59,618 nt of DNA, from positions 164,265 to 223,882 of the forward strand of contig CP070780.1 of assembly GCA_020346285.1 (NCBI GenBank). The letters run 5' to 3'. Both the position numbers and the translations under genes were made by a program. Shown in pieces: positions 1,910 to 35,351 of this stretch; position 1 is the stretch's first letter; the number at the start of each line of letters is the position of its first letter. Below the pieces are notes generated by a model. That model was not told the DNA's origin, did not search any database, and was given only the letters and a program-made list of their open reading frames with translations. This DNA is from Candidatus Omnitrophota bacterium. Its GTDB lineage: Bacteria; Omnitrophota; Gorgyraeia; JABMRN01; RBG-13-46-9.

Positions 1910-1922
1910 AAATGCAAAATTT

Positions 1923-2912: not shown

Positions 2913-2969
2913 TTTATTAATCCTCTATCAACCTGCCACAATCCGCCTTGATTCAAACCCGAATTTTCC

Positions 2970-2998
2970 TTGACATTAAGCCGTAAAAGGCATAAAAT
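2970..2998 (+). promoter_or_regulatory. candidate sigma70-type promoter (TTGACA, 17-nt spacer, TAAAAT)
   Basis: TTGACA at 2970-2975, exactly 17 nt of spacer, TAAAAT at 2993-2998. It lies in the 153-nt gap upstream of the regulator gene starting at 3066. Sequence match only. Confidence 0.5.
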
Positions 2999-3065
2999 GA
3001 TATCGTTCATTTTTAGAACACTAGCCATAATAACTATATTTTAATAAGCCCATAAATAGAATTAT

Positions 3066-3686: not shown

Positions 3687-3695
3687 GTATAAGAA

Positions 3696-3732
3696 ATCGA
3701 GGTTCGACCTCCGGAGGAGGTCGAACCTCGAT
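3696..3732 (+). promoter_or_regulatory. perfect 17-bp inverted repeat with a 3-nt loop (strong RNA hairpin or DNA palindrome)
   Basis: atcgaggttcgacctcc-gga-ggaggtcgaacctcgat, read directly. No T-run follows, so it is not a canonical intrinsic terminator. It ends 12 nt before the ATG at 3745, immediately upstream of the RBS aagggga. Confidence 0.75.
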
Positions 3733-3744
3733 CAATAAGGGGAT

Positions 3745-4743
3745 ATGAGCAAAAAAAAGGTCTTGGTTACCGGCGGAGCGGGTTTTATCGGCAGTCATTT
3801 AGTTAGCCGTCTTCTTGAGGACGGGCACGACGTGACGGTTATCGATAATTTCTCTACCGGCAGGCCGGAGAACCTCACGCATCAAAAAAACAACAGGAAC
3901 CTCCGGCTTATTGAAAAAGATATATCGGATTTTAATGCCATGAAACAATATTTCGATGGCATTAAAATCGTATTCCATCTAGCAGCATTGGCCGACATAG
4001 TTCCTTCGATTGTTAACCCGGCAGGGTATTACAGGTCTAATGTTACCGGGACATTTTGCGTTGCCGAGGCCTGCCGCCTGTCAGGGGTTGAAAAGCTCCT
4101 TTACGCCGCGTCTTCCTCTTGCTACGGAATGCCTCGCACGTATCCGACTGCCGAGGCCTCCGAAATCAATCCGCAATACCCTTACGCGCTTACGAAATAT
4201 TTAGGCGAGGAAACCCTCTTACATTGGGGCAAGGTATATAAGTTGCCGGTTATTTCCCTCAGGCTGTTTAATGTTTATGGTCCCCGTTCCCGCACCTCAG
4301 GGACATACGGGGCGGTTTTCGGGGTATTCCTGGCACAACAGCTTAACAATAAGCCATTTACCATTGTGGGTGACGGTAACCAAACGAGGGATTTTATCTA
4401 TGTTTCCGATGTAGTCGAGGCCTTTATTAAAGCTGCATTTTCAGATGTAAAAAATGAGATTTTTAATGTGGGCTCGGGAAATCCCCAGAGCATAAATAAG
4501 CTGGTTTCTCTTTTACGGGGGGATAAGATTCACATTCCTAAAAGGCCGGGCGAGCCGGACTCGACCTGGGCCGATATCAGCAAGATACAAAAGGTGCTCG
4601 ATTGGCAGCCAAAGGTCTCATTTTGCGAAGGTATAAAGAAGATGCTGAAAAATATAGATTATTGGCAGGATGCCCCTGTATGGACTCCTGAAAAAATACA
4701 AGAGGCTACCAGGGATTGGTTTGAATATTTAGCAAAGGAGTAA
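3745..4743 (+). CDS. NAD-dependent sugar epimerase/dehydratase (extended SDR)
   Basis: [12 protein letters not shown], catalytic YALTKYLGE (YxxxK), LRLFNVYGPR. 332 aa. Substrate not assignable. Confidence 0.75.
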   Translation: MSKKKVLVTGGAGFIGSHLVSRLLEDGHDVTVIDNFSTGRPENLTHQKNNRNLRLIEKDISDFNAMKQYFDGIKIVFHLAALADIVPSIVNPAGYYRSNVTGTFCVAEACRLSGVEKLLYAASSSCYGMPRTYPTAEASEINPQYPYALTKYLGEETLLHWGKVYKLPVISLRLFNVYGPRSRTSGTYGAVFGVFLAQQLNNKPFTIVGDGNQTRDFIYVSDVVEAFIKAAFSDVKNEIFNVGSGNPQSINKLVSLLRGDKIHIPKRPGEPDSTWADISKIQKVLDWQPKVSFCEGIKKMLKNIDYWQDAPVWTPEKIQEATRDWFEYLAKE

Positions 4744-4745
4744 CG

Positions 4746-6278
4746 ATGGATCCGAAAATAACAAAAAAAATAAAAACACTGAATGCGCTAACAAAAATTA
4801 TATCCGACTTTAAGAAAAAAGGAAAAAGGGTCGTCCAGTGCCACGGTGTATTTGACCTTGTCCATCTTGGACACATAAGGCATTTTAATTTAGCGAAAAA
4901 AGAAGGCGATGTCCTTGTTGTTACGATTACAAAGAATAAGTATGTTAAAAGGGGCCCCGGCAGACCTATTTTTAATGAGCATTTACGGGCGGAGACGCTA
5001 GCGAGTTTGGCTATTACCGATTATGTGTGTATTATTGATGCGCCTACCGCTACCGAATCTATCAAGGCCTTGAAACCCGATATTTACGCCAAGGGTATTG
5101 ATTATAAGAGAAAGGAAAAAGACATAACTGGTAAAATTTACGAAGAAGAAGAAGCGGTAAAAACGGTCGGGGGGCGGCTCGTATTCACCGACGATATTAC
5201 GTTTAGTTCTTCTAAATTAATCAGCGATTATCTCGACGTGTACCCTCCCAGGACCATTAAATATTTAAAGGCAATCGCAAAGCGCTATCCGATAGATTTC
5301 ATAACCGACAAATTACATTCGCTTAAGAGCTTGAAAGCCTTAGTCATAGGGGATGCCATTGTCGACCAATATCATTACTGTGTACCCATGGGCAAATCCT
5401 CCAAAGAGCATCTGATTGCAAATCGTTATTTATCAGAAGAATCCTTCGCCGGCGGCAGCCTGGCAACAGCAAACAATATAGCCAACCTTTGCGGAAAAGC
5501 CGATTTATTGACAGTGTTGGGGAAGGAAGCTTCCTTTCAAGATTTTATTAAAAGCAAATTAAGCCCTAACATCAAGCCTCTGTTTTTCTACCGACCTGAA
5601 GAGAACACTATTGTGAAGAGAAGATTTGTTGCCAAAGATACAAACCGGAAACTCTTCGAAATCTGCTATATGAAAGGCGAGGATATTTCCGGGCAGGAAG
5701 AGGCAAAAATATTGAATCAGCTTAAAAAAACAATCAAGAACTATGACTTGGTTGTTGTTTCAGATTTTGGACACGGGCTTTTAACAAAACCGATAATTAA
5801 ACTTATCTGCCAAAAAGCGAAATATCTTGCTTTAAACGTGCAGACGAATAGTGCGAACATAGGTTTTAACCTTGTAACAAAATACCCGCGCGCAAATTGC
5901 GTATGTATTGACCAAATGGAACTACGTTTCGCCGCACATGACAGATCTAACAATTTACGAACGCAGGCTAAGAAAATATATAAAGAGCTTAAATGTCAAC
6001 ATATTATTACTACCTGCGGCGCATATGGTTCCCTCTGCTATTCAAAATCGGGCGGTTTTCACGAGACGCCGGCTTTTTCCTATCGCGTTGTTGACGCAAT
6101 AGGTGCAGGGGACGCATTTTTCGCTTTTGTGGCACCTTGTTTTGCAAAAGGTATGCCGCAGGATTTGGTTTCTTTTATAGGCAATGCCGTGGGTTCTCTG
6201 GCGGTCCAGATAGTATGTAACAGGGAGCCGATTGAATTTGTTGACCTGATTAAATTTATTACAAGGTTGTTAAAATGA
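4746..6278 (+). CDS. bifunctional cytidylyltransferase-fold nucleotidyltransferase (N-terminal) / PfkB sugar kinase (C-terminal); HldE-like with reversed domain order
   Basis: N-terminal HxGH motif CHGVFDLVHLGHIRHF. C-terminal PfkB signature DAIGAGDAFFA. RBS aaggag. Followed, with an ATGA overlap, by a GmhA-like gene. Confidence 0.75.
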   Translation: MDPKITKKIKTLNALTKIISDFKKKGKRVVQCHGVFDLVHLGHIRHFNLAKKEGDVLVVTITKNKYVKRGPGRPIFNEHLRAETLASLAITDYVCIIDAPTATESIKALKPDIYAKGIDYKRKEKDITGKIYEEEEAVKTVGGRLVFTDDITFSSSKLISDYLDVYPPRTIKYLKAIAKRYPIDFITDKLHSLKSLKALVIGDAIVDQYHYCVPMGKSSKEHLIANRYLSEESFAGGSLATANNIANLCGKADLLTVLGKEASFQDFIKSKLSPNIKPLFFYRPEENTIVKRRFVAKDTNRKLFEICYMKGEDISGQEEAKILNQLKKTIKNYDLVVVSDFGHGLLTKPIIKLICQKAKYLALNVQTNSANIGFNLVTKYPRANCVCIDQMELRFAAHDRSNNLRTQAKKIYKELKCQHIITTCGAYGSLCYSKSGGFHETPAFSYRVVDAIGAGDAFFAFVAPCFAKGMPQDLVSFIGNAVGSLAVQIVCNREPIEFVDLIKFITRLLK

Positions 6279-6850
6279 GGGATGTTATCAGAGAAAATCG
6301 CCGGAGATTGAAAGAATTGTTTGACGGTGTTATTGCAACCAATGCCGAAGATACTGCTTTTGCCCTGGATGAGGCCATACATAACTCAATAAAGATGATT
6401 ATTGAACAGGCCGCCGCCGGCGGGAAGCTTCTTTTTATCGGCAATGGTGCAAGTGCTTCTATTGCAAGCCACATGGCGGTCGATTTCTGGAAAAATGCCT
6501 GTATACGGGCAATTGCCTTTAATGACAGTTCTCTGCTTACCTGTATTAGTAACGATTACGGCTATGAGCATGTGTTCGAGAAGCCGATTGAGATGTTTGC
6601 CGGGCCGGCCGATACCCTGATTGCGATTAGCAGTTCAGGTCAGTCAAAGAATATCCTCTGCGGGGTGTCCGCAGCGAAGAAAAAAGGCCTAAAGGTCCTG
6701 AGCCTTTCAGGGTTTAATAAGGATAACCCCTTAAGGGAGGCGGGGGATATAAATTTTTATGTGCCGTCTAAAAGCTATGGCCATGTGGAGGTAGTCCATC
6801 TTTCCATTTGCCACTTGCTTGTTGATATGATTATAGAGAAGAATGGATAA
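6275..6850 (+). CDS. gmhA: SIS-domain sugar-phosphate isomerase (GmhA-like phosphoheptose isomerase)
   Basis: LLFIGNGASASIASHMAVDF and AISSSGQSKNIL resemble the GmhA motifs GNGGS...H and ISTSGNS. 191 aa. ATGA overlap with the kinase/nucleotidyltransferase gene. Confidence 0.7.
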   Translation: MRDVIRENRRRLKELFDGVIATNAEDTAFALDEAIHNSIKMIIEQAAAGGKLLFIGNGASASIASHMAVDFWKNACIRAIAFNDSSLLTCISNDYGYEHVFEKPIEMFAGPADTLIAISSSGQSKNILCGVSAAKKKGLKVLSLSGFNKDNPLREAGDINFYVPSKSYGHVEVVHLSICHLLVDMIIEKNG

Positions 6851-7910
6851 ATACAAAATCGATAGCCAAAAACTTATCTACCATGTTCCCAGGGTACAAG
6901 AATGGCTGGAAGGCGAGGCTATCTATCCAATATATATGGAGATAAGTCCAACCGGGACATGTAACCACAGGTGCACGTATTGCGGTTTAGATTTTATGGA
7001 ATACCAGCCCCGATATTTAGAGACCGACATATTAAAGGAGAGGCTCTCAGAATTAGGGAAGCTGGGTTTAAAAAGTATTATGTACGCCGGGGAAGGGGAG
7101 CCGCTTTTACATAAGGATATAAAAGATATAATTAAGTATACAAAAAATTCAGGGATCGATACGGCAGTAACTACAAATGGGGTATTATTTAAAAGGGAAA
7201 TCGCCGATAATACCCTTGGCTATATGGAATGGATTAAGGTAGGCCTTGATGGAGCGACCCGGGAGACCCACGCAAAAATACACCGGTGTAGCGGCGATGA
7301 TTTTGATAAAACCCTTAGTAATATAATATATGCCGCTCGATTAAAGAGAAAAGAAAAGTATGCCTGCGCCCTCGGTATGCAGTTTTTATTGTTACCCGAG
7401 AATAGCCACGAAGTAGTTGCTTTAGCCAAGATGGCCAGGGATATGGGCCTCGATTACCTGGTGGTAAAACCTTATTCACAGCATATTCAAAGTAAGACGA
7501 CAATGTACTCATCTCTTAAATATAGCGATTATGCGTATCTTGCCGATGAGTTGGCGAAATTCAGTACGGCTGATTTCAACATTATATTCAGGATACATAC
7601 GATGAAAAAATGGGACGAGAAACGCCGAAATTATAAGCATTGCCTTGCGCTTCCGTTCTGGTCGTATATCGACGCCGGAGGCAATGTCTGGGGATGCAGC
7701 GTGTATCTTGGCGATAAAAAGTTTCTATACGGCAATATTTATGAGGAATCTTTTCAAAAGATCTGGGAGGGCAAAAAACGCTCACAGTCGCTTCGTTGGA
7801 TTGAAGAAGGGCTTGATATCTCCGGTTGCAGAGTCAACTGTAGGATGGATGAGATAAACGAGTATCTTTGGGAATTAAAAAATTTACCCGAACACGTGAA
7901 TTTTATATAA
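6843..7910 (+). CDS. radical SAM enzyme with Cys-rich C-terminal region
   Basis: CNHRCTYCG (CxxxCxxC) near the N-terminus. GEGEPLL glycine-rich SAM motif. C-terminal cysteines GCSVY...GCRVNCRMDE. Confidence 0.8.
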   Translation: MDKYKIDSQKLIYHVPRVQEWLEGEAIYPIYMEISPTGTCNHRCTYCGLDFMEYQPRYLETDILKERLSELGKLGLKSIMYAGEGEPLLHKDIKDIIKYTKNSGIDTAVTTNGVLFKREIADNTLGYMEWIKVGLDGATRETHAKIHRCSGDDFDKTLSNIIYAARLKRKEKYACALGMQFLLLPENSHEVVALAKMARDMGLDYLVVKPYSQHIQSKTTMYSSLKYSDYAYLADELAKFSTADFNIIFRIHTMKKWDEKRRNYKHCLALPFWSYIDAGGNVWGCSVYLGDKKFLYGNIYEESFQKIWEGKKRSQSLRWIEEGLDISGCRVNCRMDEINEYLWELKNLPEHVNFI

Positions 7911-7915
7911 TCATA

Positions 7916-8740
7916 ATGAAAAAAATGTTAGATTTAGAAAAGAAAACCAAGGAATTAAGAAAAGTGATATTGAAAACAATTTGTAAAGGAAGGGGAGGAC
8001 ATATTTCTGCTTCACTTTCGATCGTAGAGATCTTAGCTGTCCTTTACTACAATATTTTGAAAGTAGACCCTGGCAATCCTAAAGACCCCGAGAGGGATAG
8101 ATTCATATTAAGTAAAGGCCATGCCGCGGTTACGTTGTATGCTGTTCTTGCAGATAAAGCTTTTTTTGACAGAAAACACCTTGATACTTTTGGCCAAAGA
8201 GGGACGATTTTAGGCGGACATCCGGATATGCATAAGGTTCCCGGCGTGGAGGCATCCACAGGGGCATTGGGGCATGGGTTTCCTTTTGGAGTAGGAATGG
8301 CCCTGGCCGGAAAACTGGATAAAAAGGACTATCGTGTATTTATTCTTTTAGGGGACGGGGAATGTCAGGAGGGTTCTGTCTGGGAGGCCGCTCTTTTTGC
8401 TCCCCAGCATAAGTTAGACAATGTCATCGCTATCATAGATTACAATAAATACCAGGCATTGGATAGGCTGGATAAGATTGTATCTCTGGACCCCTTAGCT
8501 GATAAATGGAAGGCGTTTGGATGGGAGGTAAGGGAAGTCGACGGACATGACACTTCCGAACTGCTGAATGTTTTTAAAGACACCCCTTTTGTTAAGGATA
8601 AACCCAGTTTAATAATCGCAAATACAACCAAGGGTAAAGGCATCTCCTATATGGAAAATGCAGCTATCTGGCATTATCGGTCGCCTAATGAAGAAGAAAT
8701 AAAAGTAGTATGCGATGAATTAGACATGGAAAGTTTTTAA
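7916..8740 (+). CDS. transketolase, N-terminal (ThDP-binding) subunit
   Basis: GGHISASLSIVEILAVLYY, SKGHAAVTLYAVL, TGALGHGFPFGVGMALA, LLGDGECQEGSVWEAA. I chose the ATG at 7916 (MKKMLDLEKK); the listed 7868 start would overlap the upstream gene. Confidence 0.9.
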   Translation: MKKMLDLEKKTKELRKVILKTICKGRGGHISASLSIVEILAVLYYNILKVDPGNPKDPERDRFILSKGHAAVTLYAVLADKAFFDRKHLDTFGQRGTILGGHPDMHKVPGVEASTGALGHGFPFGVGMALAGKLDKKDYRVFILLGDGECQEGSVWEAALFAPQHKLDNVIAIIDYNKYQALDRLDKIVSLDPLADKWKAFGWEVREVDGHDTSELLNVFKDTPFVKDKPSLIIANTTKGKGISYMENAAIWHYRSPNEEEIKVVCDELDMESF

Positions 8741-8750
8741 GAAGGCTATA

Positions 8751-9695
8751 ATGAGAAACGCATATGTATCAGCTTTATATAATTTAGCTAAACACGACAA
8801 GCGGATTTTTGCTTTGGTGGCAGATAACGGCGCGATCGTTTATGATAAATACCGCCAGGATTTTCCGGAAAGATTTTTTAATTTTGGCATTTCTGAGGCT
8901 AATATGATAAGCGTTACAGCGGGACTGGCGGCCTGCGGTAAAATCCCTTTTGCCTATACTATCTCGTGTTTTATTACCATGAGGGCTTTTGAGCAGGTGA
9001 GAAACGATGTATGCCTGCAGAACATGAATGTCAAACTCGCTGGTACAGGTGCTGGTTTTGTGTATAGCAATCTGGGGCCCACTCATCACGGTACCGAAGA
9101 CCTGGCCCTTATGCTGGCCCTGCCGAATATGACGGTATTTTCTCCCGCAGACGCCTTAGAATCAGAAAAAGTTACATTAAAAGCAGCCGAGATTAACGGC
9201 CCTGTATATATACGCCTTGCGACAGGAAAAACCCCTGAAGTTTATGAGAAGGACTATGATTTTCAAGTAGGTAGGGGTGTAATCTTAAGGGAAGGGAGCG
9301 ATGTTTCAGTTATTACAACCAGCAGTATAACCCATGAAGTTATGAAGGCCGTGGATGAGGTGAGAAATTCAGGCATATCGGTCAGATTAATTAACATGCA
9401 TACATTAAAGCCGATCGATAAAGAAATTATTCTTGAGTCTGCATCTCGAACAGGGGCTGTTTTAACTGTTGAAGAGCATACCATTCATGGCGGTTTGGGT
9501 AGTTCCGTTGCAGGGATTATACTTGAGGGCAATAATGGATCCGTCAGGTTCAAGCGGTTAGGCTTAAACAGCGTGTTTGCTTCAGGATACGGCTCATATC
9601 AGGATATAAAGGAGGAAAATGGGTTCTCAAAAGGAGACATCACGAGAGAAATAATAAATCTCTACGAAGGCAAGAAAGGCAAATCCCATGGGTAA
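8751..9695 (+). CDS. transketolase, C-terminal (pyrimidine-binding plus C-terminal domain) subunit
   Basis: FNFGISEANMISVTAGLAACGKIPF and RAFEQVRNDV. 314 aa. Directly follows the N-terminal subunit. Confidence 0.9.
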   Translation: MRNAYVSALYNLAKHDKRIFALVADNGAIVYDKYRQDFPERFFNFGISEANMISVTAGLAACGKIPFAYTISCFITMRAFEQVRNDVCLQNMNVKLAGTGAGFVYSNLGPTHHGTEDLALMLALPNMTVFSPADALESEKVTLKAAEINGPVYIRLATGKTPEVYEKDYDFQVGRGVILREGSDVSVITTSSITHEVMKAVDEVRNSGISVRLINMHTLKPIDKEIILESASRTGAVLTVEEHTIHGGLGSSVAGIILEGNNGSVRFKRLGLNSVFASGYGSYQDIKEENGFSKGDITREIINLYEGKKGKSHG

Positions 9696-10350
9696 GCTAT
9701 TGAGTATTATCACCTCTTTACATAAAAATACAAAAAGAGATTATATAAAGAGAATGCTGGATGAAAAGGCAGCATGCTCAAGGGTAGCAAGAAGGTATGG
9801 CAGGAATTACTGGGACGGGAATAGGAGATACGGTTACGGCGGCTATAAATACGACGGACGCTGGGAAGTTGTGGCAAAGAAACTCATAGAAGTATACCGC
9901 CTTAAAAATAATGCCAAAATTTTAGATGTAGGCTGTGGAAAAGGCTTTTTATTATATGAATTTAAAAAACTCCTGCCCCAAGCAATATTAAAAGGTTTTG
10001 ATATATCACAGTATGCCATAGAGAATGCAAAGGAAGAGATTCGCGATAATCTCTTCATTCACCGGGCACAGGATCCTTATCTCTTCAAAGATAAGGAGTT
10101 TGATCTTGTTCTATCATTAACGACCCTTTATAACATCTGCATAGATGACTTGAAGTCCGCATTGCAGGAAGTGGAGAGGGTCGGCAAAAATAAATATGTA
10201 ACTATGGAAAGCTACCGGAACGAGAGAGAATTGTTTAACTTGCAGTGCTGGGCACTGACATGTGAGTTATTTTTCAGGCCGGAAGAGTGGAGATGGTTAT
10301 TTGACGTATTTGGCTATACCGGAGACTACGAGTTTATATTTTTTGAATAA
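9688..10350 (+). CDS. class I SAM-dependent methyltransferase
   Basis: Motif I ILDVGCGKGFLL. 220 aa. 8-nt overlap with the transketolase C-subunit gene. Confidence 0.75.
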   Translation: MGKLLSIITSLHKNTKRDYIKRMLDEKAACSRVARRYGRNYWDGNRRYGYGGYKYDGRWEVVAKKLIEVYRLKNNAKILDVGCGKGFLLYEFKKLLPQAILKGFDISQYAIENAKEEIRDNLFIHRAQDPYLFKDKEFDLVLSLTTLYNICIDDLKSALQEVERVGKNKYVTMESYRNERELFNLQCWALTCELFFRPEEWRWLFDVFGYTGDYEFIFFE

Positions 10351-10368
10351 AAATAAAGGGAGAACCTA

Positions 10369-11445
10369 ATGGAGCTTCTATATACAAAAATGAAAATATT
10401 CCATTTTAAAGATAAACTGGATTCATTGCCCATAACCAGAGATACGATATTGCCACCCATACATATAAGAATCAAGCCGACAAATGTATGTAATCACAAT
10501 TGTTCGTATTGCGCTTATAGAGTGGGTCACTTACAGCTGGGAAAGGATATGGTGACAAAAGATTTTATTCCCAGAGAAAAGATGATGGAGATAATAGAAG
10601 ATTTAAAAGATATGGGGGTAAAATCTGTAAGCTTTAGCGGGGGAGGGGAACCTTTTTGTTACCCTTATTTGTTAGAAGCCGTTAAAAGATTATCCGAGAC
10701 GTCTGTTAAGTTTGCAAGTTTAACGAATGGCTCAAGATTAGACGGAGAACTGGCAGAGGTCTTCGCCCACAAGGCCACATGGCTCAGGATTTCCATAGAT
10801 GGGTGGGATGACGAAAGCTATTCTGCCTACAGGGGTGTGCCCAAGGGGGAATTCACGAAGGTAATCAGAAACATAGAGAATTTTAAAAAATATAAAGGAA
10901 AGTGTTATTTAGGAGGCTATATAATTGCCGATAAGAAAAACGCTTCTCATCTATATGAATTGATACTACAATTAAAGAATAGCGGCCTTGACAGTGTCAA
11001 GATTTCACCGTGTATCGTCAGTAACAGCTGGGCAGAAAACGATGTATATCACAAACCGATATTTAAGCAGGTTAAAGATGAGATTGTTAAGGCGTCAGAT
11101 GAACTTTCAGAGGAAAATTTTGAGATATACGACGCATATGATGACCAGCTTGAAAGCTTTGAAAAAGGGTTTAACCGGCATTGGTGCCCCTATCTTCAGA
11201 TATTGCCTGTCATCGGTGCGGATCTCAATATATATCCCTGCCAGGACAAGGCATATAACCTTGATGAAGGCCTACTCGGCTCAATAAAGAATACGAGATT
11301 TAAAGATTTCTGGTTTTCGGAGAAGGAAAAATTTTTTAAGATCAACCCTTCTGTACATTGCAATCATCATTGCGTGGCAAATACAAAAAATAAACTTATT
11401 TTGGACTATCTAAATGCGGATAAAGAGCATTTAAGCTTTGTTTAA
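10369..11445 (+). CDS. radical SAM enzyme with Cys-rich C-terminal region
   Basis: CNHNCSYCAY cluster and SGGGEPF motif. C-terminal CPYL...YPCQD...HCNHHC. Its N-terminal layout resembles the 6843 protein. RBS agggag. Confidence 0.8.
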   Translation: MELLYTKMKIFHFKDKLDSLPITRDTILPPIHIRIKPTNVCNHNCSYCAYRVGHLQLGKDMVTKDFIPREKMMEIIEDLKDMGVKSVSFSGGGEPFCYPYLLEAVKRLSETSVKFASLTNGSRLDGELAEVFAHKATWLRISIDGWDDESYSAYRGVPKGEFTKVIRNIENFKKYKGKCYLGGYIIADKKNASHLYELILQLKNSGLDSVKISPCIVSNSWAENDVYHKPIFKQVKDEIVKASDELSEENFEIYDAYDDQLESFEKGFNRHWCPYLQILPVIGADLNIYPCQDKAYNLDEGLLGSIKNTRFKDFWFSEKEKFFKINPSVHCNHHCVANTKNKLILDYLNADKEHLSFV

Positions 11446-11462
11446 TAATGCGAACCCGATAA

Positions 11463-12554
11463 ATGAAGATTCCTTATCGCGACCTTAGTATAAAAAATCT
11501 CATTTTGAGAAAAGAATTACTACAGGCGGTAAATAGGGTTTTATCGCATGGCAGGATAATTCTTGGGCCTGAGGTTAGGCAGTTTGAGAAACAGCTTATG
11601 CAATTTTGTCAAAAAAAGTATGCAATTGGAGTAAATTCTGGAACCGATGCATTGTATTTGGCTTTACGTAGTTTAAACATCGGACCTGGCGATGAGGTAA
11701 TTACGACTCCGCTTTCATGGATTGCGACAGTTAATGCCATTGCAGTATGTGGAGCAACACCGGTATTTGTAGACATATCGGAAGATTTGAATATTAATGT
11801 TGATTTGATTGAGGCGGCGATAACCCCAAAGACAAAGGTTATACTTCCTGTACATTTTACGGGAAAGTTATGTAACATTTTGCGAATTATGGAGATTGCG
11901 GCAAAACATGACATTTTCGTGGTTGAAGATTCGGCACAATCTTTTGGTGCACATATTAACGGTGCGATGGCAGGTTCATTCGGGCATATCAATTGTTTCA
12001 GTATGAATCCAATGAAGGTGTTATGTTCATATGGTGAGTCCGGAGCAGTTGTAACCGACGATGAACACCTATATCAAAAAATTATGTCACTAAGATATGC
12101 AGGAACAGTAAATAAAGAGAATTGTTATTATCCCAGCTTGAACGATAGAATTGATACCATTCAGGCCGCTATGATACTTGTAAATCTGAAATATTTAACT
12201 AAAAAGATTGAATTACGGCGTAAAATTGCAAAGTTTTATACTCAAGCCCTTAAAGATGTAGTAATCTGTCCTGAGGAAGATGATTCTTCTCATGTTTATT
12301 ATTCATACACTATTATTGCCGAAAAGAGAGACGAGTTGAAGGAGTATTTATGTTCGAAAGGGATTGAAACAAAGATTCAACACCCGATTTTAATGCCTTA
12401 TCATACCGCTTATCGTCATTTATCTAAGTTTTCTATACCTGTTGCTGAAAGTCTGGTCAATAAGATTCTATGCGTTCCCAATGAAGAAAACTTAACTTTT
12501 AAACAAGCTAATTACGTCGTAAACTGCATCAAGGAATTTTATGGGGCTTGTTGA
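11463..12554 (+). CDS. DegT/DnrJ/EryC1/StrS-family PLP-dependent sugar aminotransferase
   Basis: GVNSGTDALYLALR. Candidate PLP lysine in FSMNPMKVLCSYGESGAVVTDD. 363 aa. Confidence 0.85.
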   Translation: MKIPYRDLSIKNLILRKELLQAVNRVLSHGRIILGPEVRQFEKQLMQFCQKKYAIGVNSGTDALYLALRSLNIGPGDEVITTPLSWIATVNAIAVCGATPVFVDISEDLNINVDLIEAAITPKTKVILPVHFTGKLCNILRIMEIAAKHDIFVVEDSAQSFGAHINGAMAGSFGHINCFSMNPMKVLCSYGESGAVVTDDEHLYQKIMSLRYAGTVNKENCYYPSLNDRIDTIQAAMILVNLKYLTKKIELRRKIAKFYTQALKDVVICPEEDDSSHVYYSYTIIAEKRDELKEYLCSKGIETKIQHPILMPYHTAYRHLSKFSIPVAESLVNKILCVPNEENLTFKQANYVVNCIKEFYGAC

Positions 12555-12557
12555 ATT

Positions 12558-13082
12558 ATGAATATCAAGAAAATTAATGACGAAGTTTTCTATTCTTCTA
12601 ATGCAGTTACAAAAATTAGTAAAGAGGATATAGCGTGGCTCAGGGCTCGTGCAGCTGAAAACCCCAGAAAGCGGGTGCGTCTTTGCGGCCACAGAAATAT
12701 TGAAGATTTAATACATGAAATGCTCATTATTCACGCTAAGGGGATTTATGTTCGGCCACATAAACACCTAAAAAAAATTGAGTCATTCCACACAATTGAG
12801 GGTAATCTTAAAGTTGTGGTGTTTGATGAGTCTGGAGGTATCTTAGAGGTAATCCGTATGGGAGATTATCTTTCGGGAGAGATATTTTACTATAGACTTT
12901 CCGAGAGCTATTTTCATACTGTAATACCCTTATCTGATTTTGTGGTTTTCCATGAAATAACAGAAGGACCGTTTCAGCGCAAAGATACTGTCTTTGCACC
13001 CTGGGCTCCTGCAGATGATGAATATGAATCCCAGAAGCTCTATTTAAATAAATTAAAGACAGAGATAACGAGGAAAGGATGA
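12558..13082 (+). CDS. WbuC-like cupin-fold protein
   Basis: RKRVRLCGH...EMLIIHAKGIYVRPHKH...ESFHTIEG matches my recollection of the WbuC cupin family. 174 aa. Function unknown. Confidence 0.55.
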   Translation: MNIKKINDEVFYSSNAVTKISKEDIAWLRARAAENPRKRVRLCGHRNIEDLIHEMLIIHAKGIYVRPHKHLKKIESFHTIEGNLKVVVFDESGGILEVIRMGDYLSGEIFYYRLSESYFHTVIPLSDFVVFHEITEGPFQRKDTVFAPWAPADDEYESQKLYLNKLKTEITRKG

Positions 13083-14044
13083 ATTACCATCTAAAGGGCT
13101 CAAAAGCTATCAAATATGTTGAAAAAACACTAGGATACCCCTTAGAGACTTTGCTTCTTTTTCCTAAATTCTTTTTAATAGAGACAATTAATGTATGTAA
13201 TACACGATGTATTATGTGTGGAATCGACTTTGACAAAAAGAAAAAAGCTGCTATGACAGATAATCTCTTTGATAAAATAACAAATGAAATAACGCAGTAT
13301 AGTAATCATGTGGAAAAAGTGATACTTTATCTTGATGGCGAACCACTTTTAGATAGGAAACTTCCTTCAAGAATCCGAAAGTTGAAAGAGGGGGGTATTA
13401 AAAAAATCAATATTGCCAGCAATGCAAGTCTTCTTGATTGTGCAAAGGCAAGGCAAATTATTGACGCGGGCTTAGATGAGATTTATATTACTCTCGATTC
13501 TTTAAAAAAGGATGTCTTTGAAACCGTTCGTCCCAGACTAAAGTTTGAAACTGTGTATAAAAATATTATTGATTTTGTTAAATTGAGAAACCAGCTTAAT
13601 CCAAAACTTACTATTCGCATCCAAATGATTCTACAGAAGTTGAACTATCATGAGGTCGATTCTTTTAGCCACCATTGGGTTCCTCGGTTGAACCCTAATG
13701 ACCAGGTGATTGTACAGAAAGCCCATAACTGGGGTTCAACAGTAGAAGTTATGGAGTTTGGTGACGAAGATACGATTAACTATGTCCCTTGTATTGCCTT
13801 ATGGGGGACCCTCTGTATTCATGTGGACGGGCAGGTAGGACTCTGTTGTATGGATACCAAAAGCACATTACCTCTTGGTAAGGTTACTTCACAAACCATT
13901 GCTGAAATATGGTCTGGTAAGCCTTTGAGAACTATAAGAGAAAAGCATATAGAGGGGTGCAGATACCAAATTTCGCTCTGTAATAAATGCACTGTTTGGA
14001 GGGAAACTAAACACGAAAGGGAGAAAGTTTTAAAAACTGCTTGA
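13079..14044 (+). CDS. radical SAM / SPASM-like domain protein
   Basis: CNTRCIMCG cluster and LDGEPLL motif. C-terminal CIALWGTLCIHVDGQVGLCCMD ... LCNKCTVW. ATGA overlap with the upstream gene. Confidence 0.8.
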   Translation: MNYHLKGSKAIKYVEKTLGYPLETLLLFPKFFLIETINVCNTRCIMCGIDFDKKKKAAMTDNLFDKITNEITQYSNHVEKVILYLDGEPLLDRKLPSRIRKLKEGGIKKINIASNASLLDCAKARQIIDAGLDEIYITLDSLKKDVFETVRPRLKFETVYKNIIDFVKLRNQLNPKLTIRIQMILQKLNYHEVDSFSHHWVPRLNPNDQVIVQKAHNWGSTVEVMEFGDEDTINYVPCIALWGTLCIHVDGQVGLCCMDTKSTLPLGKVTSQTIAEIWSGKPLRTIREKHIEGCRYQISLCNKCTVWRETKHEREKVLKTA

Positions 14045-14045
14045 G

Positions 14046-15923
14046 ATGGATACCGCAATTATAAATTCCAAGGAATTTACACTATCGGACAATTTATCTT
14101 TAATAGAATATTGCAAGTCGCTAAGATCAAGATACAAACCGAACAAGAAGGTATTGCTTGTACAAATCCCCCAATTTATTTTTAAATCGTTTAATTCCGA
14201 GATTGCAAAAAGGAAAGGATATTACATTTTCCCTCCGACGGGACTGCAGTATTTATACGAGTCTTTAAAAAATAGGGATTTAGATATAAAAATTCTTGAC
14301 TTAAATTTTATGCTTTTAAAAAAAGTGTGTGAAGACGAAATATTTGACGACACGCAGTGGTTAATAAGCCTTAAAAATAGCCTTAAGTCATTTAAGCCCT
14401 TTATTATGGGGGTATCCTGTATGTATGATTCCGGCATACCGTCTTTGATGCAAATACTTGAATTTCTAAAAAGAGAGGGTCAATCTGTTATAATAGCAGG
14501 AGGGGTAATCGCGACATACGAATGGGAAAATTTGCTTTCACGGAAATTGTGCCATTTTGTAGTCAAAGGAGAGGGCGAAAATAAGATTAATTATCTTTTT
14601 GACCACTTGACAGAAGAAAATCAAAATTTCGCCCCAATTCCCGGAATCTGCTATAACTACCAGGACAATGATTTTGCTACAAATGGCAAACAGGACAAGA
14701 TTACGCTAGCTACCGATTTAATAGATAGTTATTCTTTAATTGAAATTGAGAAATATCACGAATACGGTTCTTTAAATCCTTTTTCGAGAATATCCGGGAT
14801 TTCTGACCATCCCTTTGCGGCCATTCAGATGAATAGGGGGTGCCGGGGGGCGTGTACCTTTTGCTCCGTCCACGATTTTATAGGAAGCGATATCCACAAA
14901 AGGCCCGTTGATAAAGTATTGGACGAGATGGAATTTCTAATTAATAGACGAGGAGTGAGACACTTTGAATGGCTAGACGATGATTTACTTTTTTTTAAAA
15001 AAGATTTTCAACTTTTGTTGAAAACAATTATAAAACGCAAATGGAGAATTAGCTGGTCAGCAAACAATGGTCTGATCGCCTCATCCATAGACGATGAGAT
15101 GATGCGATTGATGAGAGATTCCGGCTGCATAGGTTTTAAAGTAGGAATAGAAACCGGCAACGCTGAAATGCTAAAGAAAATTAAAAAGCCCGTTACATTA
15201 GATACATTTAGAAGAGTTTCTCGTATATTTAAACACTATCCCGAGATTTTTGTTGGAGGTAACTTTATGTTGGGATTTCCTCACGAGAGATTTTGCCAGA
15301 TGATGGATTCTTTTTGGTTTTTTCTGGAGCTAGATTTAGACTGGGGCGCTTTTACCATATGTCAAGCTATCAGAGGCGCAACGGCTTTTAGCGATTTTGA
15401 GGATCATTTTAGCACACAAATAAGTTTAAACGATGAAAATATAAAGAATTTTATTCCAACAAGGGAATCTCCAAAAGGACAGCTTTCTAACAAGCTCGGT
15501 ATTTTTAAAAGCATGGATGTTTTTAAAATAAATCCCGAAACTGTTCCCAGCGAAGAACAGGTTAAGGAAATATGGTTTACGTTCAATCTTGTCGGAAATT
15601 TTATTAATAATAAAAATTTAAAACCAGAAGGCAAGGTAGAGAAATTTATTTCCTGGGTTGAAATGGCTCAAATTGCCTATCCCACAAATGCATATATGAG
15701 TCTTTTTTTATCTCTTGCCTATATCATTAAAGGTGATCAAAAGAATTCTCGGAATTATTATAATAAAGCAGTGTTATGCCACCAGTCTGATTATTGGCGT
15801 GAAAGATTTTCTTCTTTCGGGTTAACGGGAGTATTAAATAACTTACCGAGAAATGCAGAGACGGCATGGAAAACTATGGAAACATTGCGAGAATATTGTT
15901 CGTTGCATTACCGTGTTGGATAA
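14046..15923 (+). CDS. B12-binding-domain radical SAM protein (class B type)
   Basis: N-terminal B12-binding-like region (VLLVQIPQ...IMGVSCMYDS...VIIAGGVIAT...VVKGEGE) followed by NRGCRGACTFCSV. 625 aa with a long C-terminal extension. Confidence 0.8.
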   Translation: MDTAIINSKEFTLSDNLSLIEYCKSLRSRYKPNKKVLLVQIPQFIFKSFNSEIAKRKGYYIFPPTGLQYLYESLKNRDLDIKILDLNFMLLKKVCEDEIFDDTQWLISLKNSLKSFKPFIMGVSCMYDSGIPSLMQILEFLKREGQSVIIAGGVIATYEWENLLSRKLCHFVVKGEGENKINYLFDHLTEENQNFAPIPGICYNYQDNDFATNGKQDKITLATDLIDSYSLIEIEKYHEYGSLNPFSRISGISDHPFAAIQMNRGCRGACTFCSVHDFIGSDIHKRPVDKVLDEMEFLINRRGVRHFEWLDDDLLFFKKDFQLLLKTIIKRKWRISWSANNGLIASSIDDEMMRLMRDSGCIGFKVGIETGNAEMLKKIKKPVTLDTFRRVSRIFKHYPEIFVGGNFMLGFPHERFCQMMDSFWFFLELDLDWGAFTICQAIRGATAFSDFEDHFSTQISLNDENIKNFIPTRESPKGQLSNKLGIFKSMDVFKINPETVPSEEQVKEIWFTFNLVGNFINNKNLKPEGKVEKFISWVEMAQIAYPTNAYMSLFLSLAYIIKGDQKNSRNYYNKAVLCHQSDYWRERFSSFGLTGVLNNLPRNAETAWKTMETLREYCSLHYRVG

Positions 15924-15924
15924 A

Positions 15925-17124
15925 ATGTCAAATTGCGAAAACAAATTAAAGCCATCTCTTCTTAAATATTATCAGGATTATTGTTTTAATCCTGTACCGA
16001 TCAATGTTGAGGATAAAAACGTATGGGAATTACATATGGTTAAACGCCGTAATCTTTATGAAAGACATTTGAAAATTCCACTTTCTTTGTTTAATGGGCG
16101 TTCAGTGATTGAATTTGGTTGTAATTCAGGAGAAAATGCTTTACATCTCGCAGCTTGTGGTGCAAGGTTAACACTGGTAGAACCTAACGACCAAGTATTG
16201 CCTCGATTGAAGACTTTATTTAAAAACTTTGGGTTTGAACAAAGCATAGTAGCCCTGGTGAACAAAGATATAGCTGGATTCGAATCTCAGAACTTCTATG
16301 ATGTAGTGTTAGCTGAAGGATTTTTGAACGCGCTTTCAAATCGGGATGAGATGTTTTTAAAAATCTGTAGATTTCTGGTACCAAATGGATTAGGTGTTAT
16401 TTCATTTGATGATCGATACGGTTCTTTACTTGAAGTTACGAAACAGTTGATTCTAAAACGGGCATGTTGCTTGAAAAAAATTGACGATATCCACAGCCAG
16501 ATTTCCTTAGAACTGGCTAAAACTCTATTCGGAGAGGATTTCGCACGACTGAATGCTTCACGGTCTTTTGAAGTTTGGTGGAAAGACGTGTTGCTAAATC
16601 CATTTGTGGCATGGAAGCATCTTTGGACTTATCAAGAATTTATTCCCCTTCTTGAGAAGGCTGGCTGTGAATTTTATTCTTCTTCTCCTAAATGGACTCG
16701 GGTCGATCATTTTTTGTGGTATAAAGATGTACCAAACAGCGAAGACCGGCATCAACGTCTTCTAAGCGATTGGCACAGAGCTTTTCCTTCTTTTTTGACA
16801 GGACTACCTTTCTTTGATGAAAAAATTGAGCTTGCCCCTTTTGATGTAGTAGAAGCTACCTCTGAGTTGATAGAAAAAATTTCTGAATACGTGTCATCAG
16901 AGAATTTGTCTATAGATTCGGTCTCTTATCCATCCGAACTCGATAATTATCTTAATAAGAGTGAAATTGCAGAATTACAAGTATTTAATGACGAGATGAA
17001 GAGAATATTTGATGTTGTAAAATCTTCTCAATTTGATGAGTTAATTTCCAATTACCACGATACAAAATATATAAGGATGTTTTGGGGGACCCCTTGTCAC
17101 TATATTTGTTTTATCAAACGATGA
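15925..17124 (+). CDS. class I SAM-dependent methyltransferase with a long C-terminal extension
   Basis: Motif I VIEFGCNSGENALHLA ... LVEPN. ATG at 15925 lies directly after the upstream stop (15921-15923); the listed 15853 start would overlap the upstream gene. Confidence 0.7.
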   Translation: MSNCENKLKPSLLKYYQDYCFNPVPINVEDKNVWELHMVKRRNLYERHLKIPLSLFNGRSVIEFGCNSGENALHLAACGARLTLVEPNDQVLPRLKTLFKNFGFEQSIVALVNKDIAGFESQNFYDVVLAEGFLNALSNRDEMFLKICRFLVPNGLGVISFDDRYGSLLEVTKQLILKRACCLKKIDDIHSQISLELAKTLFGEDFARLNASRSFEVWWKDVLLNPFVAWKHLWTYQEFIPLLEKAGCEFYSSSPKWTRVDHFLWYKDVPNSEDRHQRLLSDWHRAFPSFLTGLPFFDEKIELAPFDVVEATSELIEKISEYVSSENLSIDSVSYPSELDNYLNKSEIAELQVFNDEMKRIFDVVKSSQFDELISNYHDTKYIRMFWGTPCHYICFIKR

Positions 17125-18386
17125 ATCAATTAAAGAGAAAAAGTAACCCATTTATTAATTTTTTGCGCAGGCCAATCAGAGAGACTTGCCAAAAAGGCTT
17201 ATCTGTGCTGTTCAGAAAATGCCGAACACTTCTATTAATAGTGTTAGCAATACCGGTTGTTGTTCTGGTGCGTGCGTTACAGCCACTGGTATTAATACGG
17301 TTTGGGCGTTTAGAAAGTAGAAGGATTGGTCATTTCATTGAGAATACGGAGATATATCTGTCTGAACGTGATGGAGGGATGCACGATCATCGGACTTTTG
17401 ACATATTTTACCACTACTTACCAATTTCTAATTATCAGGTGAAGAAGATGTGGGAGAGGACAGGGAGGCTATGCATCTCGCCATTCACCGCTTTTACGCA
17501 AGCAATAGATAGGTTTAACCGTCTACTGCCAGGTGGCCAGCGACATACGATTTCACCATCAGCTAGGGACGTCTATGGCCTTCGTGCACACACTAAGCCA
17601 TACCTTTCTTTTACGCCCGAAGAGGAACGTTTAGGACGCCGAGAACTCCAGAAACTGGGCATATTTGATGGAGCTCCTTTTGTCTGTTTTCATGCGCGAG
17701 ACTCAGCCTATTTGGATACCACCTATCTGAACTATAGGTGGCGCTACCAGGATTTTAGGGATTCGAGCATTCATAACTATATCTCCGCCGCGGAAGAATT
17801 GGCACACAGGGGTTATTTCATGTTTAGAATGGGTACAGTAGTAAAGAAAGCGCTGCATAGCAACAACCCCAGAATTATCGATTATGCCACAAATGCCAGA
17901 ACAGACTTTCTGGATATATATTTGAGTGCTAAATGTCGATTCTTTATCTGCGATACCGCCGGTATCTCTTCTGCACCTACAGCCTTTAAACGGCCGATAG
18001 CCTGGGTAAACTATATTCGGCTTGGATATATCCCTAGCGGTGTTGTAAAGAATTTGCTTATTCCTAAGAAACTTTGGTTGTGCAAAGAACATCGTTTCCT
18101 GACTTTTCGTGAAATCTTAGATTCAGACATAGGCCGTTTTAATAAGGCTGAAGAATACGAACAGGTTGGAATAGAACCCGTAGAAAACACTCCAGAGGAG
18201 ATTGTTGCTCTGGCTGTAGAAATGGATGAGCGGTTGAAAGGCAAGTGGCAGACGACTGAAGAGGATGAAGAATTACAACGGCGCTTCTACGCACTTCTTA
18301 ATCCATGCAATTTGAATTTGAAGCAGATTGTTATACCACGGATTGGCGCAGAATTTTTGCGTCAAAACCCCGGGTTTTTAGAATAA
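17121..18386 (+). CDS. membrane-anchored protein of unknown function, paralog A (possibly a glycosyltransferase-like family)
   Basis: ATGA overlap with the upstream stop. N-terminal hydrophobic anchor LLLIVLAIPVVVLV. Strongly similar along almost its full length to 22252..23427. No catalytic motif recognised. Confidence 0.45.
   Translation: MNQLKRKSNPFINFLRRPIRETCQKGLSVLFRKCRTLLLIVLAIPVVVLVRALQPLVLIRFGRLESRRIGHFIENTEIYLSERDGGMHDHRTFDIFYHYLPISNYQVKKMWERTGRLCISPFTAFTQAIDRFNRLLPGGQRHTISPSARDVYGLRAHTKPYLSFTPEEERLGRRELQKLGIFDGAPFVCFHARDSAYLDTTYLNYRWRYQDFRDSSIHNYISAAEELAHRGYFMFRMGTVVKKALHSNNPRIIDYATNARTDFLDIYLSAKCRFFICDTAGISSAPTAFKRPIAWVNYIRLGYIPSGVVKNLLIPKKLWLCKEHRFLTFREILDSDIGRFNKAEEYEQVGIEPVENTPEEIVALAVEMDERLKGKWQTTEEDEELQRRFYALLNPCNLNLKQIVIPRIGAEFLRQNPGFLE
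17229..18386 (+). repeat. diverged direct repeat, copy 1 (paired with 22277..23427); boundaries approximate
   Basis: Nucleotide similarity is visible across the gene body. Exact shared runs include gggattcgagcattcataactatatc at 17758-17783 and 22808-22833, and ctttcttttacgcccgaagagga in both copies. Confidence 0.8.
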
Positions 18387-35348: not shown

Positions 35349-35351
35349 GCA

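Follow-up and report, generated by a model that had tools for sequence, protein, structure and literature searches.

Introduction

The ADP-L-glycero-beta-D-manno-heptose pathway of Escherichia coli comprises GmhA, HldE, GmhB and HldD, with HldE carrying a kinase domain followed by an adenylyltransferase domain. In Campylobacter jejuni, the GDP-heptose of the capsule is tailored by a C4 dehydrogenase, cupin epimerases and reductases, and the HddA kinase and HddC guanylyltransferase are separate proteins. Thiamine diphosphate (ThDP) enzymes act on activated sugars in the formation of yersiniose (YerE) and of the eurekanate of avilamycin (AviB1/AviB2), where they add a two-carbon (C2) branch to a nucleoside diphosphate (NDP)-keto-sugar. 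The split transketolase-like proteins QncN/QncL and NapB/NapD move a glycolaldehyde unit from ketose phosphates to a lipoyl or carrier protein for a nonribosomal peptide synthetase line. Among radical S-adenosylmethionine (SAM) enzymes, DesII, which acts on a TDP-sugar, and BlsE, which acts on a nucleoside sugar, abstract hydrogen from a sugar carbinol carbon. Here we describe a gene cassette with homologues of several of these enzymes, found in a 59,618-nucleotide stretch of a Candidatus Omnitrophota genome (contig CP070780.1, positions 164,265 to 223,882) which is referred to below, at its full length, as the window.

The cassette lies largely within a block (positions 3745-17124) that had been described from the letters alone as a heptose-like module with a reversed HldE-type fusion, a GmhA-like isomerase, a split transketolase and four radical SAM enzymes. 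In this original prediction, the transketolase was taken either to supply sedoheptulose-7-phosphate to a dedicated heptose route or to transfer a C2 unit onto a sugar. We find that the transketolase-like pair belongs to a clade with an altered substrate site and stands in a gene core that recurs in several phyla. Judged from sequence, there is in our estimate an even chance that this core combines NDP-heptose synthesis with ThDP-dependent C2 transfer onto an oxidised sugar, followed by methylation and redox tailoring. Nucleotide-heptose synthesis and ThDP-dependent sugar modification are both known kinds of chemistry; what is apparently new is the widespread altered-site clade at the centre. 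To our knowledge, the pathway to the cassette sugar is uncharacterised.

Conserved core of the cassette

Every gene and domain that the original prediction had listed for the block was recovered with Pfam or NCBIfam, and its description of the genes as running on without real gaps agrees with the junctions, at which neighbouring genes, all on the + strand, overlap or are separated by no more than about 20 nucleotides (nt). The cassette genes also show translational coupling, as read directly from the sequence at the ATGA overlap between the fusion and the GmhA-like gene at 6275, which had likewise been noted before.

For comparison, 84 related loci were fetched, having been picked via the fusion protein; their open reading frames (ORFs) were compared with the window proteins and then clustered de novo. 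The set contains 81 non-duplicate loci, among them 38 with at least 8 kb on either side of the fusion, which are called full-length below. The region 3066-11445 is a conserved core encoding a winged helix-turn-helix (HTH) protein, a GalE-like short-chain dehydrogenase/reductase (SDR), the fusion, the GmhA-like isomerase, the radical SAM enzyme rSAM1, the transketolase-like subunits TK_N and TK_C, the methyltransferase MT1 and the radical SAM enzyme rSAM2. The remainder, 11463-17124, is a lineage-specific, non-conserved tail. As a unit, the block of the original prediction therefore stands for the core, which recurs in relatives, and falls apart in the tail, where rSAM3, the B12-binding radical SAM enzyme and the methyltransferase MT2 are not conserved; the conserved unit also begins one gene earlier than had been proposed, at the HTH gene.

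The usual order in the relatives is HTH, GalE-like SDR, fusion, GmhA-like gene and then either a second SDR or rSAM1, followed sometimes by two DegT genes or by a gene for a 223-amino-acid (aa) unannotated protein and an APH-like kinase gene. The last part consists of TK_N, TK_C, MT1, a zinc-dependent alcohol dehydrogenase (Zn-ADH) or rSAM2, and sometimes WbuC. All 38 full-length loci have an SDR, 35 have a ThDP enzyme of some kind (transketolase-like, E1alpha/beta-type or ALS/YerE-type), 29 have the GmhA-like gene and 21 have MT1. Over the whole set, an SDR homologue of at least 40% identity was found in 65 of 84 loci and a match of any kind in 82 (median identity, 65%), and the GmhA-like gene was found in 59.

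The approximately 223-aa protein mentioned above has no Pfam, NCBIfam or PDB match and is always paired with the APH-fold kinase-like protein (for example, L024 11509-12177 and L032 13695-14792, and 19 to 23 other loci). The pair lies directly upstream of the transketolase-like pair in many relatives and is not present in the window. In L001 (CP070797.1), a complete Omnitrophota genome, a stand-alone gene for a 160-aa protein of the cytidylyltransferase fold (9499-9981) lies directly upstream of the fusion, and the cassette is minimal, with the fusion, the SIS isomerase, the SDR, TK_N, TK_C and a methyltransferase fragment before housekeeping genes begin.

The fusion protein is 70 to 87% identical to more than 100 protein clusters, the named ones of which come from Candidatus Omnitrophota metagenome-assembled genomes; the contig with the copy of the window measures 1.43 Mb. 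A scan with one genome per species found relatives of the fusion in 365 loci or species-representative genomes, which by record title belong to Omnitrophota, Auribacterota, Margulisiibacteriota, Patescibacteria (Andersenbacteria and Gottesmanbacteria), Elusimicrobia, Chloroflexota and Oligoflexia. The core cassette itself recurs in Omnitrophota, Patescibacteria, Margulisiibacteriota, Elusimicrobia and Chloroflexota. Since several of these lineages lack an outer membrane, the cassette is not a pathway for the core of lipopolysaccharide (LPS). Many further fusion loci, at 66 to 76% identity, are titled uncultured Planctomycetia, Pirellulales, Actinomycetota or even archaeon; such titles probably reflect mislabelled bins rather than true taxonomic spread.

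In 22 related loci, the SDR-fusion pair is preceded by a homologue of the HTH gene. In the window this gene, a possible regulator, is directly preceded by the largest intergenic gap of the first 22 kb (2913-3065), in which the best sigma-70-like promoter match is located; promoter-like sites overall were no more numerous than in shuffled sequence, and this site is a match to the consensus only.

A transketolase-like pair with an altered substrate site

Scored with the transketolase model NF004559, TK_N and TK_C reach 283 and 240 bits, respectively, and among solved structures they come closest to the split transketolase of Carboxydothermus hydrogenoformans (6YAK/6YAJ; 272 and 256 bits). TK_N is listed as an ORF from TTG 7868, but a start at ATG 7916 is more likely. 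With the numbering checked against the human sequence, TK_N was found to keep the equivalents of H37, H77, H110, D155, N185 and H258, and TK_C those of R318 (R2) and of the cofactor-activating E366 (E49), together with H112. The ThDP/Mg motif, the activating glutamate and the donor-side histidines of transketolase are thus all present.

In transketolases, S345, H416, D424 and R474 bind the phosphate group of the substrate and position the hydroxyl of the acceptor. In the window TK_C, S345 is replaced by Ile29, H416 by Gly100, D424 by Leu108 and R474 by Thr158, so that R318 is the only one of the phosphate residues R318, S345, H416 and R474 to be left and the acceptor-orienting aspartate is gone as well. 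The canonical S345, H416, D424 and R474 are kept in both 6YAJ and human transketolase. The altered site was found in all of the approximately 37 cassette-linked TK_C homologues, down to 37% identity, and in 129 of the 150 nearest representatives from a library of 1.8 billion proteins; 23 of 152 aligned sequences had the canonical site. In a neighbour-joining distance tree, calculated without support values, the smallest clade holding all cassette-linked TK_C sequences has 127 tips and includes no canonical-site sequence, and the window TK_C does not group with the characterised transketolases. By these sequence features, the pair is predicted to be a repurposed enzyme and not the housekeeping transketolase. 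We know of no reaction assigned to members of this clade.

A transketolase that appears to feed a heptose route is provided by L087 (GCA_041643015.1, 9177-14112). In this operon both transketolase subunits are canonical, and a GmhA-like SIS domain is fused to TK_C (P0161). The operon further encodes another SIS protein and a 672-aa triple fusion in the normal HldE order (PfkB-nucleotidyltransferase-HAD), a GT9 heptosyltransferase gene lies upstream, and the whole appears to make up a full heptose pathway that provides its own sedoheptulose-7-phosphate. Since the transketolase of L087 keeps the canonical site, the idea of such a supply is sound in general but not for the window enzyme.

Exchange of ThDP enzymes and other genomic contexts

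Among the 81 non-duplicate loci, the ThDP enzyme was transketolase-like in 45, E1alpha/beta-like in 16 and of the acetolactate synthase (ALS)/YerE type in 10, and the latter two types often occupy the same position as the transketolase-like pair. Enzymes of the E1 and ALS types cannot supply sedoheptulose-7-phosphate, and all three types can deliver a C2 unit, which argues for a tailoring role. The window enzyme itself is of the transketolase type, without homology to either of the other two. Natural fusions of altered-site TK_C with Zn-ADH (P0181) and with methyltransferases (P0235 and P0252) point to the same role, since the fusion partners match the gene neighbours MT1 and Zn-ADH.

Altered-site pairs were also found where no heptose genes are present: behind a nucleotidyltransferase and two SDRs in a Wzy-type cluster (L085), between SDRs, aldo-keto reductases and a TylF-like methyltransferase (L091) and in front of an SDR (L092). 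DegT is also among the NDP-sugar neighbours of the pairs in these three loci. The surroundings expected of C2 branching, an SDR of a type that could make an NDP-keto-sugar (38 of 38 full-length loci) and a Zn-ADH or rSAM2 downstream of MT1, are found with the cassette. The second reading of the original prediction, C2 transfer onto a sugar, gained from the interchangeable ThDP types, the TK_C fusions and the NDP-sugar contexts, all of which are evidence of context and leave the transfer itself a prediction.

In L004 (670-7175) and L093 (1508-7930), several ThDP enzymes are stacked (ALS-type, DXS-like and the transketolase-like pair). Genes for HMGL-like or HpcH aldolases and for an acetaldehyde dehydrogenase-like protein adjoin them, and these stacks may serve to supply the two-carbon donor.

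The heptose-like front end

The order of domains that the original prediction had called reversed was borne out, with CTP_transf_like at residues 33-137 and PfkB at 199-488 of the 510-aa fusion, opposite to the order of HldE, and both of the motifs it had named, FDLVHLGHIRHF (HxGH) and GAGDAFFA, were read in the gene. The N-terminal half matches HldE domain II (TIGR02199) with 100 bits against a cut-off of 181, the next family reaching 38 bits, and the C-terminal half matches HldE domain I (TIGR02198) with 123 bits against 345, the next family reaching 44 bits. HLGH, TFSSS and GAGD are invariant in relatives of the fusion, and its best PDB matches are HldA (4E84, 53 bits) and the RfaE-II-like protein 3GLV of Thermoplasma.

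The GmhA-like protein scored 115 bits with TIGR00441, below the equivalog cut-off of 209, and its top 13 PDB matches are all phosphoheptose isomerases. It has the SIS fold, the catalytic His/acid pair and the Ser-rich phosphate loop; relative to E. coli GmhA (2I22), the equivalents of H61 and H180 are kept, E65 is replaced by D, and the phosphate loop reads ISSSGQS instead of ISTSGNS. The SDR, encoded directly upstream of the fusion, is of the epimerase or C4-oxidoreductase type. Its best PDB matches are of the GalE type (7YS8 and 4ZRM), with WbgU and UXS also among them, and it carries the motifs SSSCYG and YALTK. The dehydratase Asp-Glu pair was absent in a motif check. This SDR resembles neither HldD nor a 4,6-dehydratase.

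No HAD or GmhB-type protein was detected in the 59.6-kb window, either with Pfam on all ORFs or in a phmmer search with an E. coli GmhB sequence, in agreement with what the original prediction had stated. By phmmer, GmhB-like HAD genes adjoin the cassette in five relatives (L071, L050, L054, L044 and L042), in the first of which the gene is immediately upstream of the fusion. With GmhA and the HldE domains as the best assignments and GmhB beside these relatives, a route from a ketose phosphate through isomerase, kinase, phosphatase and nucleotidyltransferase is the most economical interpretation, and the label of a heptose-like module was in this respect well chosen. A phosphate-free route from an unphosphorylated ketose to an aldose-1-phosphate was also considered, which would account for GmhB being absent and for the transketolase-like pair having lost its phosphate site. 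It was rejected because the isomerase keeps its phosphate loop and because of the GmhB-like genes beside the cassette in the five relatives.

Radical SAM enzymes and methyltransferase of the core

The four radical SAM genes of the block scored 76, 90.5, 54 and 65.5 bits with PF04055 (cut-off, 29.5), in accordance with the original prediction, and all four contain CxxxCxxC, for which CNHRCTYC and CNHNCSYC were read. Homologues of rSAM1 are 65 to 83% identical and always 355 aa long, being as conserved as the fusion. Its anti-correlation with the second SDR, whose slot it occupies, was pronounced among the ThDP-bearing loci, which are not phylogenetically independent (Fisher P = 1.9e-5). The best sequence match of rSAM1 among solved structures is BlsE (40 bits), and the top fold matches of its AlphaFold model are DesII, SuiB, BlsE and viperin, with a template modelling (TM) score of about 0.55. 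The model weakly suggests that rSAM1 may act on a nucleotide-linked sugar.

MT1 was found in 31 loci at a median identity of 61%, directly after TK_C or directly before E1alpha. In loci without rSAM2, a Zn-ADH usually takes its position.

Lineage-specific tail and surrounding genes

The coordinates of the cassette genes and of other features are given in Table 1. From 97 to 56287, all substantial ORFs of the window are on the + strand, and by the ORF list and Pfam nearly all of them encode sugar-nucleotide or glycan enzymes. Although the cassette often includes a DegT gene, close relatives of the one in the tail are infrequent among the 84 loci. The WbuC cupin was found in eight related loci, downstream of MT1, rSAM2 or Zn-ADH. 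Among the 84 loci, rSAM3 has no close homologue, MT2 has no homologue, and the B12-binding radical SAM enzyme has one only (L022, 72% identity). The gene that follows encodes a candidate glycosyltransferase for the product; in L005, the first window homologue to be recognised after rSAM2 is a 54%-identical TIGR04372 glycosyltransferase, encoded about 2.5 kb further downstream.

Table 1. Features of the cassette and of its surroundings, with positions in the window
Feature	Positions	Strand	Basis or remark
Second UDP-glucose dehydrogenase-family ORF	97-735		End of central domain and C-terminal domain only
RmlC/FdtA-like cupin, RmlA-like nucleotidyltransferase and true 4,6-dehydratase	728-1174 and 1175-2912		Dehydratase motif TDECYG; just upstream of the cassette
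Best sigma-70-like promoter match	2970-2998	+	TTGACA-17-TAAAAT, consensus match, in 154-nt gap upstream of cassette
Winged-helix HTH_24 protein, possible regulator, first cassette gene	3066-3686	+	Pfam HTH_24, E = 2e-10
GalE/UXS-type SDR (SDRe), epimerase or C4-oxidoreductase type	3745-4743	+	Pfam Epimerase
Reversed HldE-type fusion	4746-6278	+	CTP_transf_like and PfkB
GmhA-like SIS phosphosugar isomerase	6275-6850	+	ATGA overlap with fusion; TIGR00441
rSAM1, radical SAM/SPASM-twitch	6843-7910	+	Pfam; slot of second SDR in most relatives
TK_N, transketolase-like N-terminal ThDP/Mg subunit	7916-8740	+	Transketolase_N
TK_C, transketolase-like C-terminal pyrimidine subunit	8751-9695	+	Transket_pyr and Transketolase_C
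MT1, class I SAM methyltransferase, ThDP-enzyme partner	9688-10350	+	Pfam
rSAM2, radical SAM	10369-11445	+	Pfam; always adjoins MT1
DegT/PseC-type sugar aminotransferase	11463-12554	+	Pfam, NCBIfam
WbuC-family cupin	12558-13082	+	TIGR04366, 136 bits (cut-off, 42)
rSAM3, radical SAM/SPASM	13079-14044	+	Pfam
B12-binding radical SAM, probably methylase	14046-15923	+	Pfam
MT2, methyltransferase	15853-17124	+	Pfam
TIGR04372-family glycosyltransferase, candidate for product	17082-18386	+	223 bits (cut-off, 45)
Further B12-binding radical SAM	20770-22239		
UDP-glucose/GDP-mannose dehydrogenase, NAD-binding domain	27363-27830		Split over frames
UDP-glucose/GDP-mannose dehydrogenase, central and C-terminal domains	27802-28683		Split over frames
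Adenylylsulfate kinase	28702-29247		
Further B12-binding radical SAM	32249-33670		
Nonulosonic-acid module	33700-41616		PseB-like dehydratase to NeuB, see text
Further B12-binding radical SAM	41623-43068		
Further B12-binding radical SAM	57468-59495	-	

Several other features of the window are recorded here. The pair of RmlA-like nucleotidyltransferase and dehydratase upstream of the cassette also precedes it in L051, L060, L067, L073 and L077, and since the pair adjoins the cassette, a 4-keto-6-deoxyhexose would be made next door. The N-terminal part of the dehydrogenase-family ORF at the window start would lie before the window or in another frame. The split of the other dehydrogenase into two overlapping ORFs could stem from a frameshift or an error in sequencing, or the gene could be a pseudogene; there is no obvious homopolymer at the junction. 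With the further B12-binding genes of Table 1, the glycan region of 59.6 kb contains eight radical SAM genes, five of them of the B12 type, an unusually high density. The nonulosonic-acid module comprises a PseB-like dehydratase, a methyltransferase, a cytidylyltransferase of the CMP-sugar synthetase type, an RmlD-like reductase, a carbamoyltransferase, a hexapeptide acetyltransferase and NeuB. No recognisable sulfotransferase gene is near the adenylylsulfate kinase gene.

Proposed pathway and alternatives

By homology, the GmhA-like isomerase would convert sedoheptulose-7-phosphate to heptose-7-phosphate, the PfkB half of the fusion would phosphorylate C1 to give the 1,7-bisphosphate, a GmhB-type phosphatase encoded elsewhere would remove the 7-phosphate, leaving heptose-1-phosphate, and the N-terminal half of the fusion would form the NDP-heptose. 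From the gene context, the GalE-like SDR, rSAM1 as stand-in for the second SDR, or both, may then oxidise the sugar, producing a ketone or an aldehyde, onto which the transketolase-like pair would transfer a dihydroxyethyl (glycolaldehyde) unit, yielding a branched or chain-extended (C9) sugar. MT1 is predicted to methylate the product, and rSAM2, or in most relatives Zn-ADH, to adjust its redox state. In the window, the tail (DegT, WbuC, rSAM3, the B12-binding radical SAM enzyme and MT2) may add amination, probably epimerisation and further methylation, and the TIGR04372 glycosyltransferase would use the tailored sugar. We tentatively suggest, as a possible though doubtful extension, that the product is a nine-carbon neutral sugar made from an NDP-heptose extended or branched by glycolaldehyde, by a route with no relation to the way in which NeuB forms nonulosonic acids by aldolase-type chemistry. 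It is just as tentative that uncultivated and often ultra-small bacteria (Omnitrophota, Patescibacteria and Margulisiibacteriota) commonly use this chemistry for their surface glycans and that radical SAM enzymes replace the NAD-dependent oxidation and reduction steps in strict anaerobes. Cleavage of the side chain of a 6-keto-heptose by the transketolase-like pair was set aside, as C5 would bear the ring oxygen and no aldehyde could form.

Several points weigh against this pathway. Transketolases normally attack aldehydes and not the ketones of 4-keto sugars. Since R318 is retained, some phosphate-type ligand is probably still bound. Altered-site pairs occur with FkbH and acyl carrier protein (ACP) genes or with aldolase genes (L089, L093 and L004), so that the C2 unit could go elsewhere than to a sugar. 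Neither the fusion nor the GmhA-like protein nor the SDR reaches a curated equivalog cut-off, and the sugar therefore need not be D-glycero-D-manno-heptose. The AlphaFold model of rSAM1 is of low confidence (predicted local distance difference test score [pLDDT], 68.7), with the C-terminal cluster domain unmodelled, and the mutual exclusion of rSAM2 and Zn-ADH is a trend only (overlap in 1 of 8 loci, P = 0.14). The related loci, having been picked via the fusion, are not phylogenetically independent, and the functional links drawn here come from gene neighbourhood, fusion proteins and residue substitutions.

The first reading of the original prediction, in which the split transketolase would be a dedicated or housekeeping enzyme making sedoheptulose-7-phosphate for the GmhA/HldE-type route and other enzymes would carry out the later chemistry, did not hold up and now appears improbable. 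Both subunits match transketolase strongly in model and structure, and their ThDP, Mg and donor histidine residues are intact; transketolase mutants of enterobacteria have heptose-deficient LPS, and the L087 operon follows exactly such logic. However, the residues equivalent to S345, H416, D424 and R474, which L087 keeps, are replaced in every cassette-linked homologue, with the loss of three of the four phosphate residues and of the aspartate; the clade is without a canonical member; E1- and ALS-type enzymes unable to make sedoheptulose-7-phosphate fill the same place elsewhere; and the TK_C fusions with methyltransferase and Zn-ADH point to tailoring. In another alternative, the front end would make no heptose, and the divergent GmhA-like isomerase and the reversed fusion would act on a different ketose phosphate, such as octulose-8-phosphate, as in lincosamide biosynthesis, or on another C6 to C8 sugar. 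LmbN is a GmhA homologue that acts on an octulose phosphate, and scores far under the cut-offs for GmhA, kinase and nucleotidyltransferase, distant PDB matches (HldA, 53 bits) and an SDR that is GalE-like and not HldD-like would all suit such a substrate. We nevertheless consider it quite unlikely, as GmhA and the HldE families are by far the best matches, GmhB-like genes stand beside the cassette in five loci and the de novo ORF clusters contained no conserved cassette aldolase or transaldolase for making a longer ketose phosphate.

It is unlikely, though less so, that the transketolase-like pair, MT1 and rSAM2, joined in relatives by the unannotated 223-aa protein, the APH-like kinase and Zn-ADH, form a separate sub-pathway which would turn the C2 unit of a ketose into a small substituent or carrier-bound unit, to be attached later to the heptose or to an amino group, with no carbon-carbon bond being formed on the NDP-sugar. 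The genes for TK_N, TK_C, MT1 and Zn-ADH or rSAM2 do move together, and in some loci (L048, L075, L076 and L004) they are found upstream of the fusion or on the other strand; this block is often preceded by the APH-like kinase and the unannotated protein; elsewhere, altered-site pairs occur with FkbH, a carrier protein and MaoC (L089) or with an HMGL-like aldolase and further ThDP enzymes (L093). Yet Pfam detected no carrier protein, lipoyl domain or acyltransferase in the window core, ketose-phosphate donors would still require the phosphate site that has been lost, and the commonest neighbours of altered-site pairs are NDP-sugar SDRs. Finally, the genes could have come together by chance in a hypervariable surface-glycan island, as glycan genes follow one another on one strand for 56 kb of the window and rSAM3, MT2 and the B12-binding radical SAM enzyme are not conserved with the fusion. 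That explanation is a fair description of the tail. It is contradicted for the core, and as an account of the whole is hardly credible, given a core order that recurs across several phyla, a ThDP enzyme beside the fusion in 35 of the 38 full-length loci, translational coupling, and TK_C-methyltransferase and TK_C-alcohol dehydrogenase fusion proteins.

Significance and comparison with known systems

A large clade annotated as transketolase, to judge from the 129 of 150 nearest representatives, is without the transketolase substrate site and occurs in sugar-nucleotide clusters. If its reaction were assigned, many annotations would be put right, and the known ThDP carboligases could gain a member with a new range of acceptors. 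The presence of the cassette in 365 species-level genomes, mostly from phyla without cultured members, makes it one of few well-defined routes into the surface chemistry of Omnitrophota and the candidate phyla radiation. In the cassette, radical SAM enzymes appear to replace NAD-dependent sugar oxidoreductases. All of its proteins are of small size and look soluble, and sedoheptulose-7-phosphate, from which the route would start, is obtainable.

The front end shares with the E. coli heptose pathway the same isomerase, kinase and nucleotidyltransferase families, the fusion of kinase and nucleotidyltransferase, and, in some relatives of the cassette, an adjacent GmhB-like phosphatase. It differs in that the order of the fusion is reversed and scores are under the equivalog cut-offs, that the window is without GmhB, that the SDR is GalE/UXS-like rather than HldD, and that phyla lacking LPS, such as Patescibacteria and Chloroflexota by record title, are among those with the cassette. 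The capsule pathway of C. jejuni offers a partial analogy for the tailoring of a heptose, with a GalE-like SDR and a cupin, to which the GalE-like SDR and WbuC of the window may correspond; Campylobacter, however, has neither a ThDP enzyme nor radical SAM enzymes in this pathway. DesII and BlsE are among the top matches of rSAM1, and chemistry at a carbinol carbon would by analogy fit an enzyme that replaces an SDR, but the identity is only 14 to 18% at the TM score given above, and rSAM1 has a four-Cys C-terminal domain of its own.

The split transketolase 6YAK/6YAJ has the same two-subunit architecture, ThDP/Mg motif and donor-side histidines as the window pair, whose TK_C lacks the equivalents of S345, H416, D424 and R474 and falls into a separate clade of altered-site sequences only. 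QncN/QncL and NapB/NapD provide an analogy as split transketolase homologues that move a C2 unit outside central metabolism, but in the window there is no carrier protein and the phosphate site is not intact. The proposed sequence of a keto-sugar formed by an SDR, C2 addition by a ThDP enzyme and a subsequent reductase would correspond to that of YerE and AviB1/AviB2, and enzymes of the ALS/YerE type (10 loci) and of the E1alpha/beta type (16 loci) do replace the transketolase-like pair in relatives. The window enzyme would differ from these in being of the transketolase type, with dihydroxyethyl-ThDP and not hydroxyethyl-ThDP as its intermediate, and in acting on a proposed heptose and not on a 3,6-dideoxyhexose.

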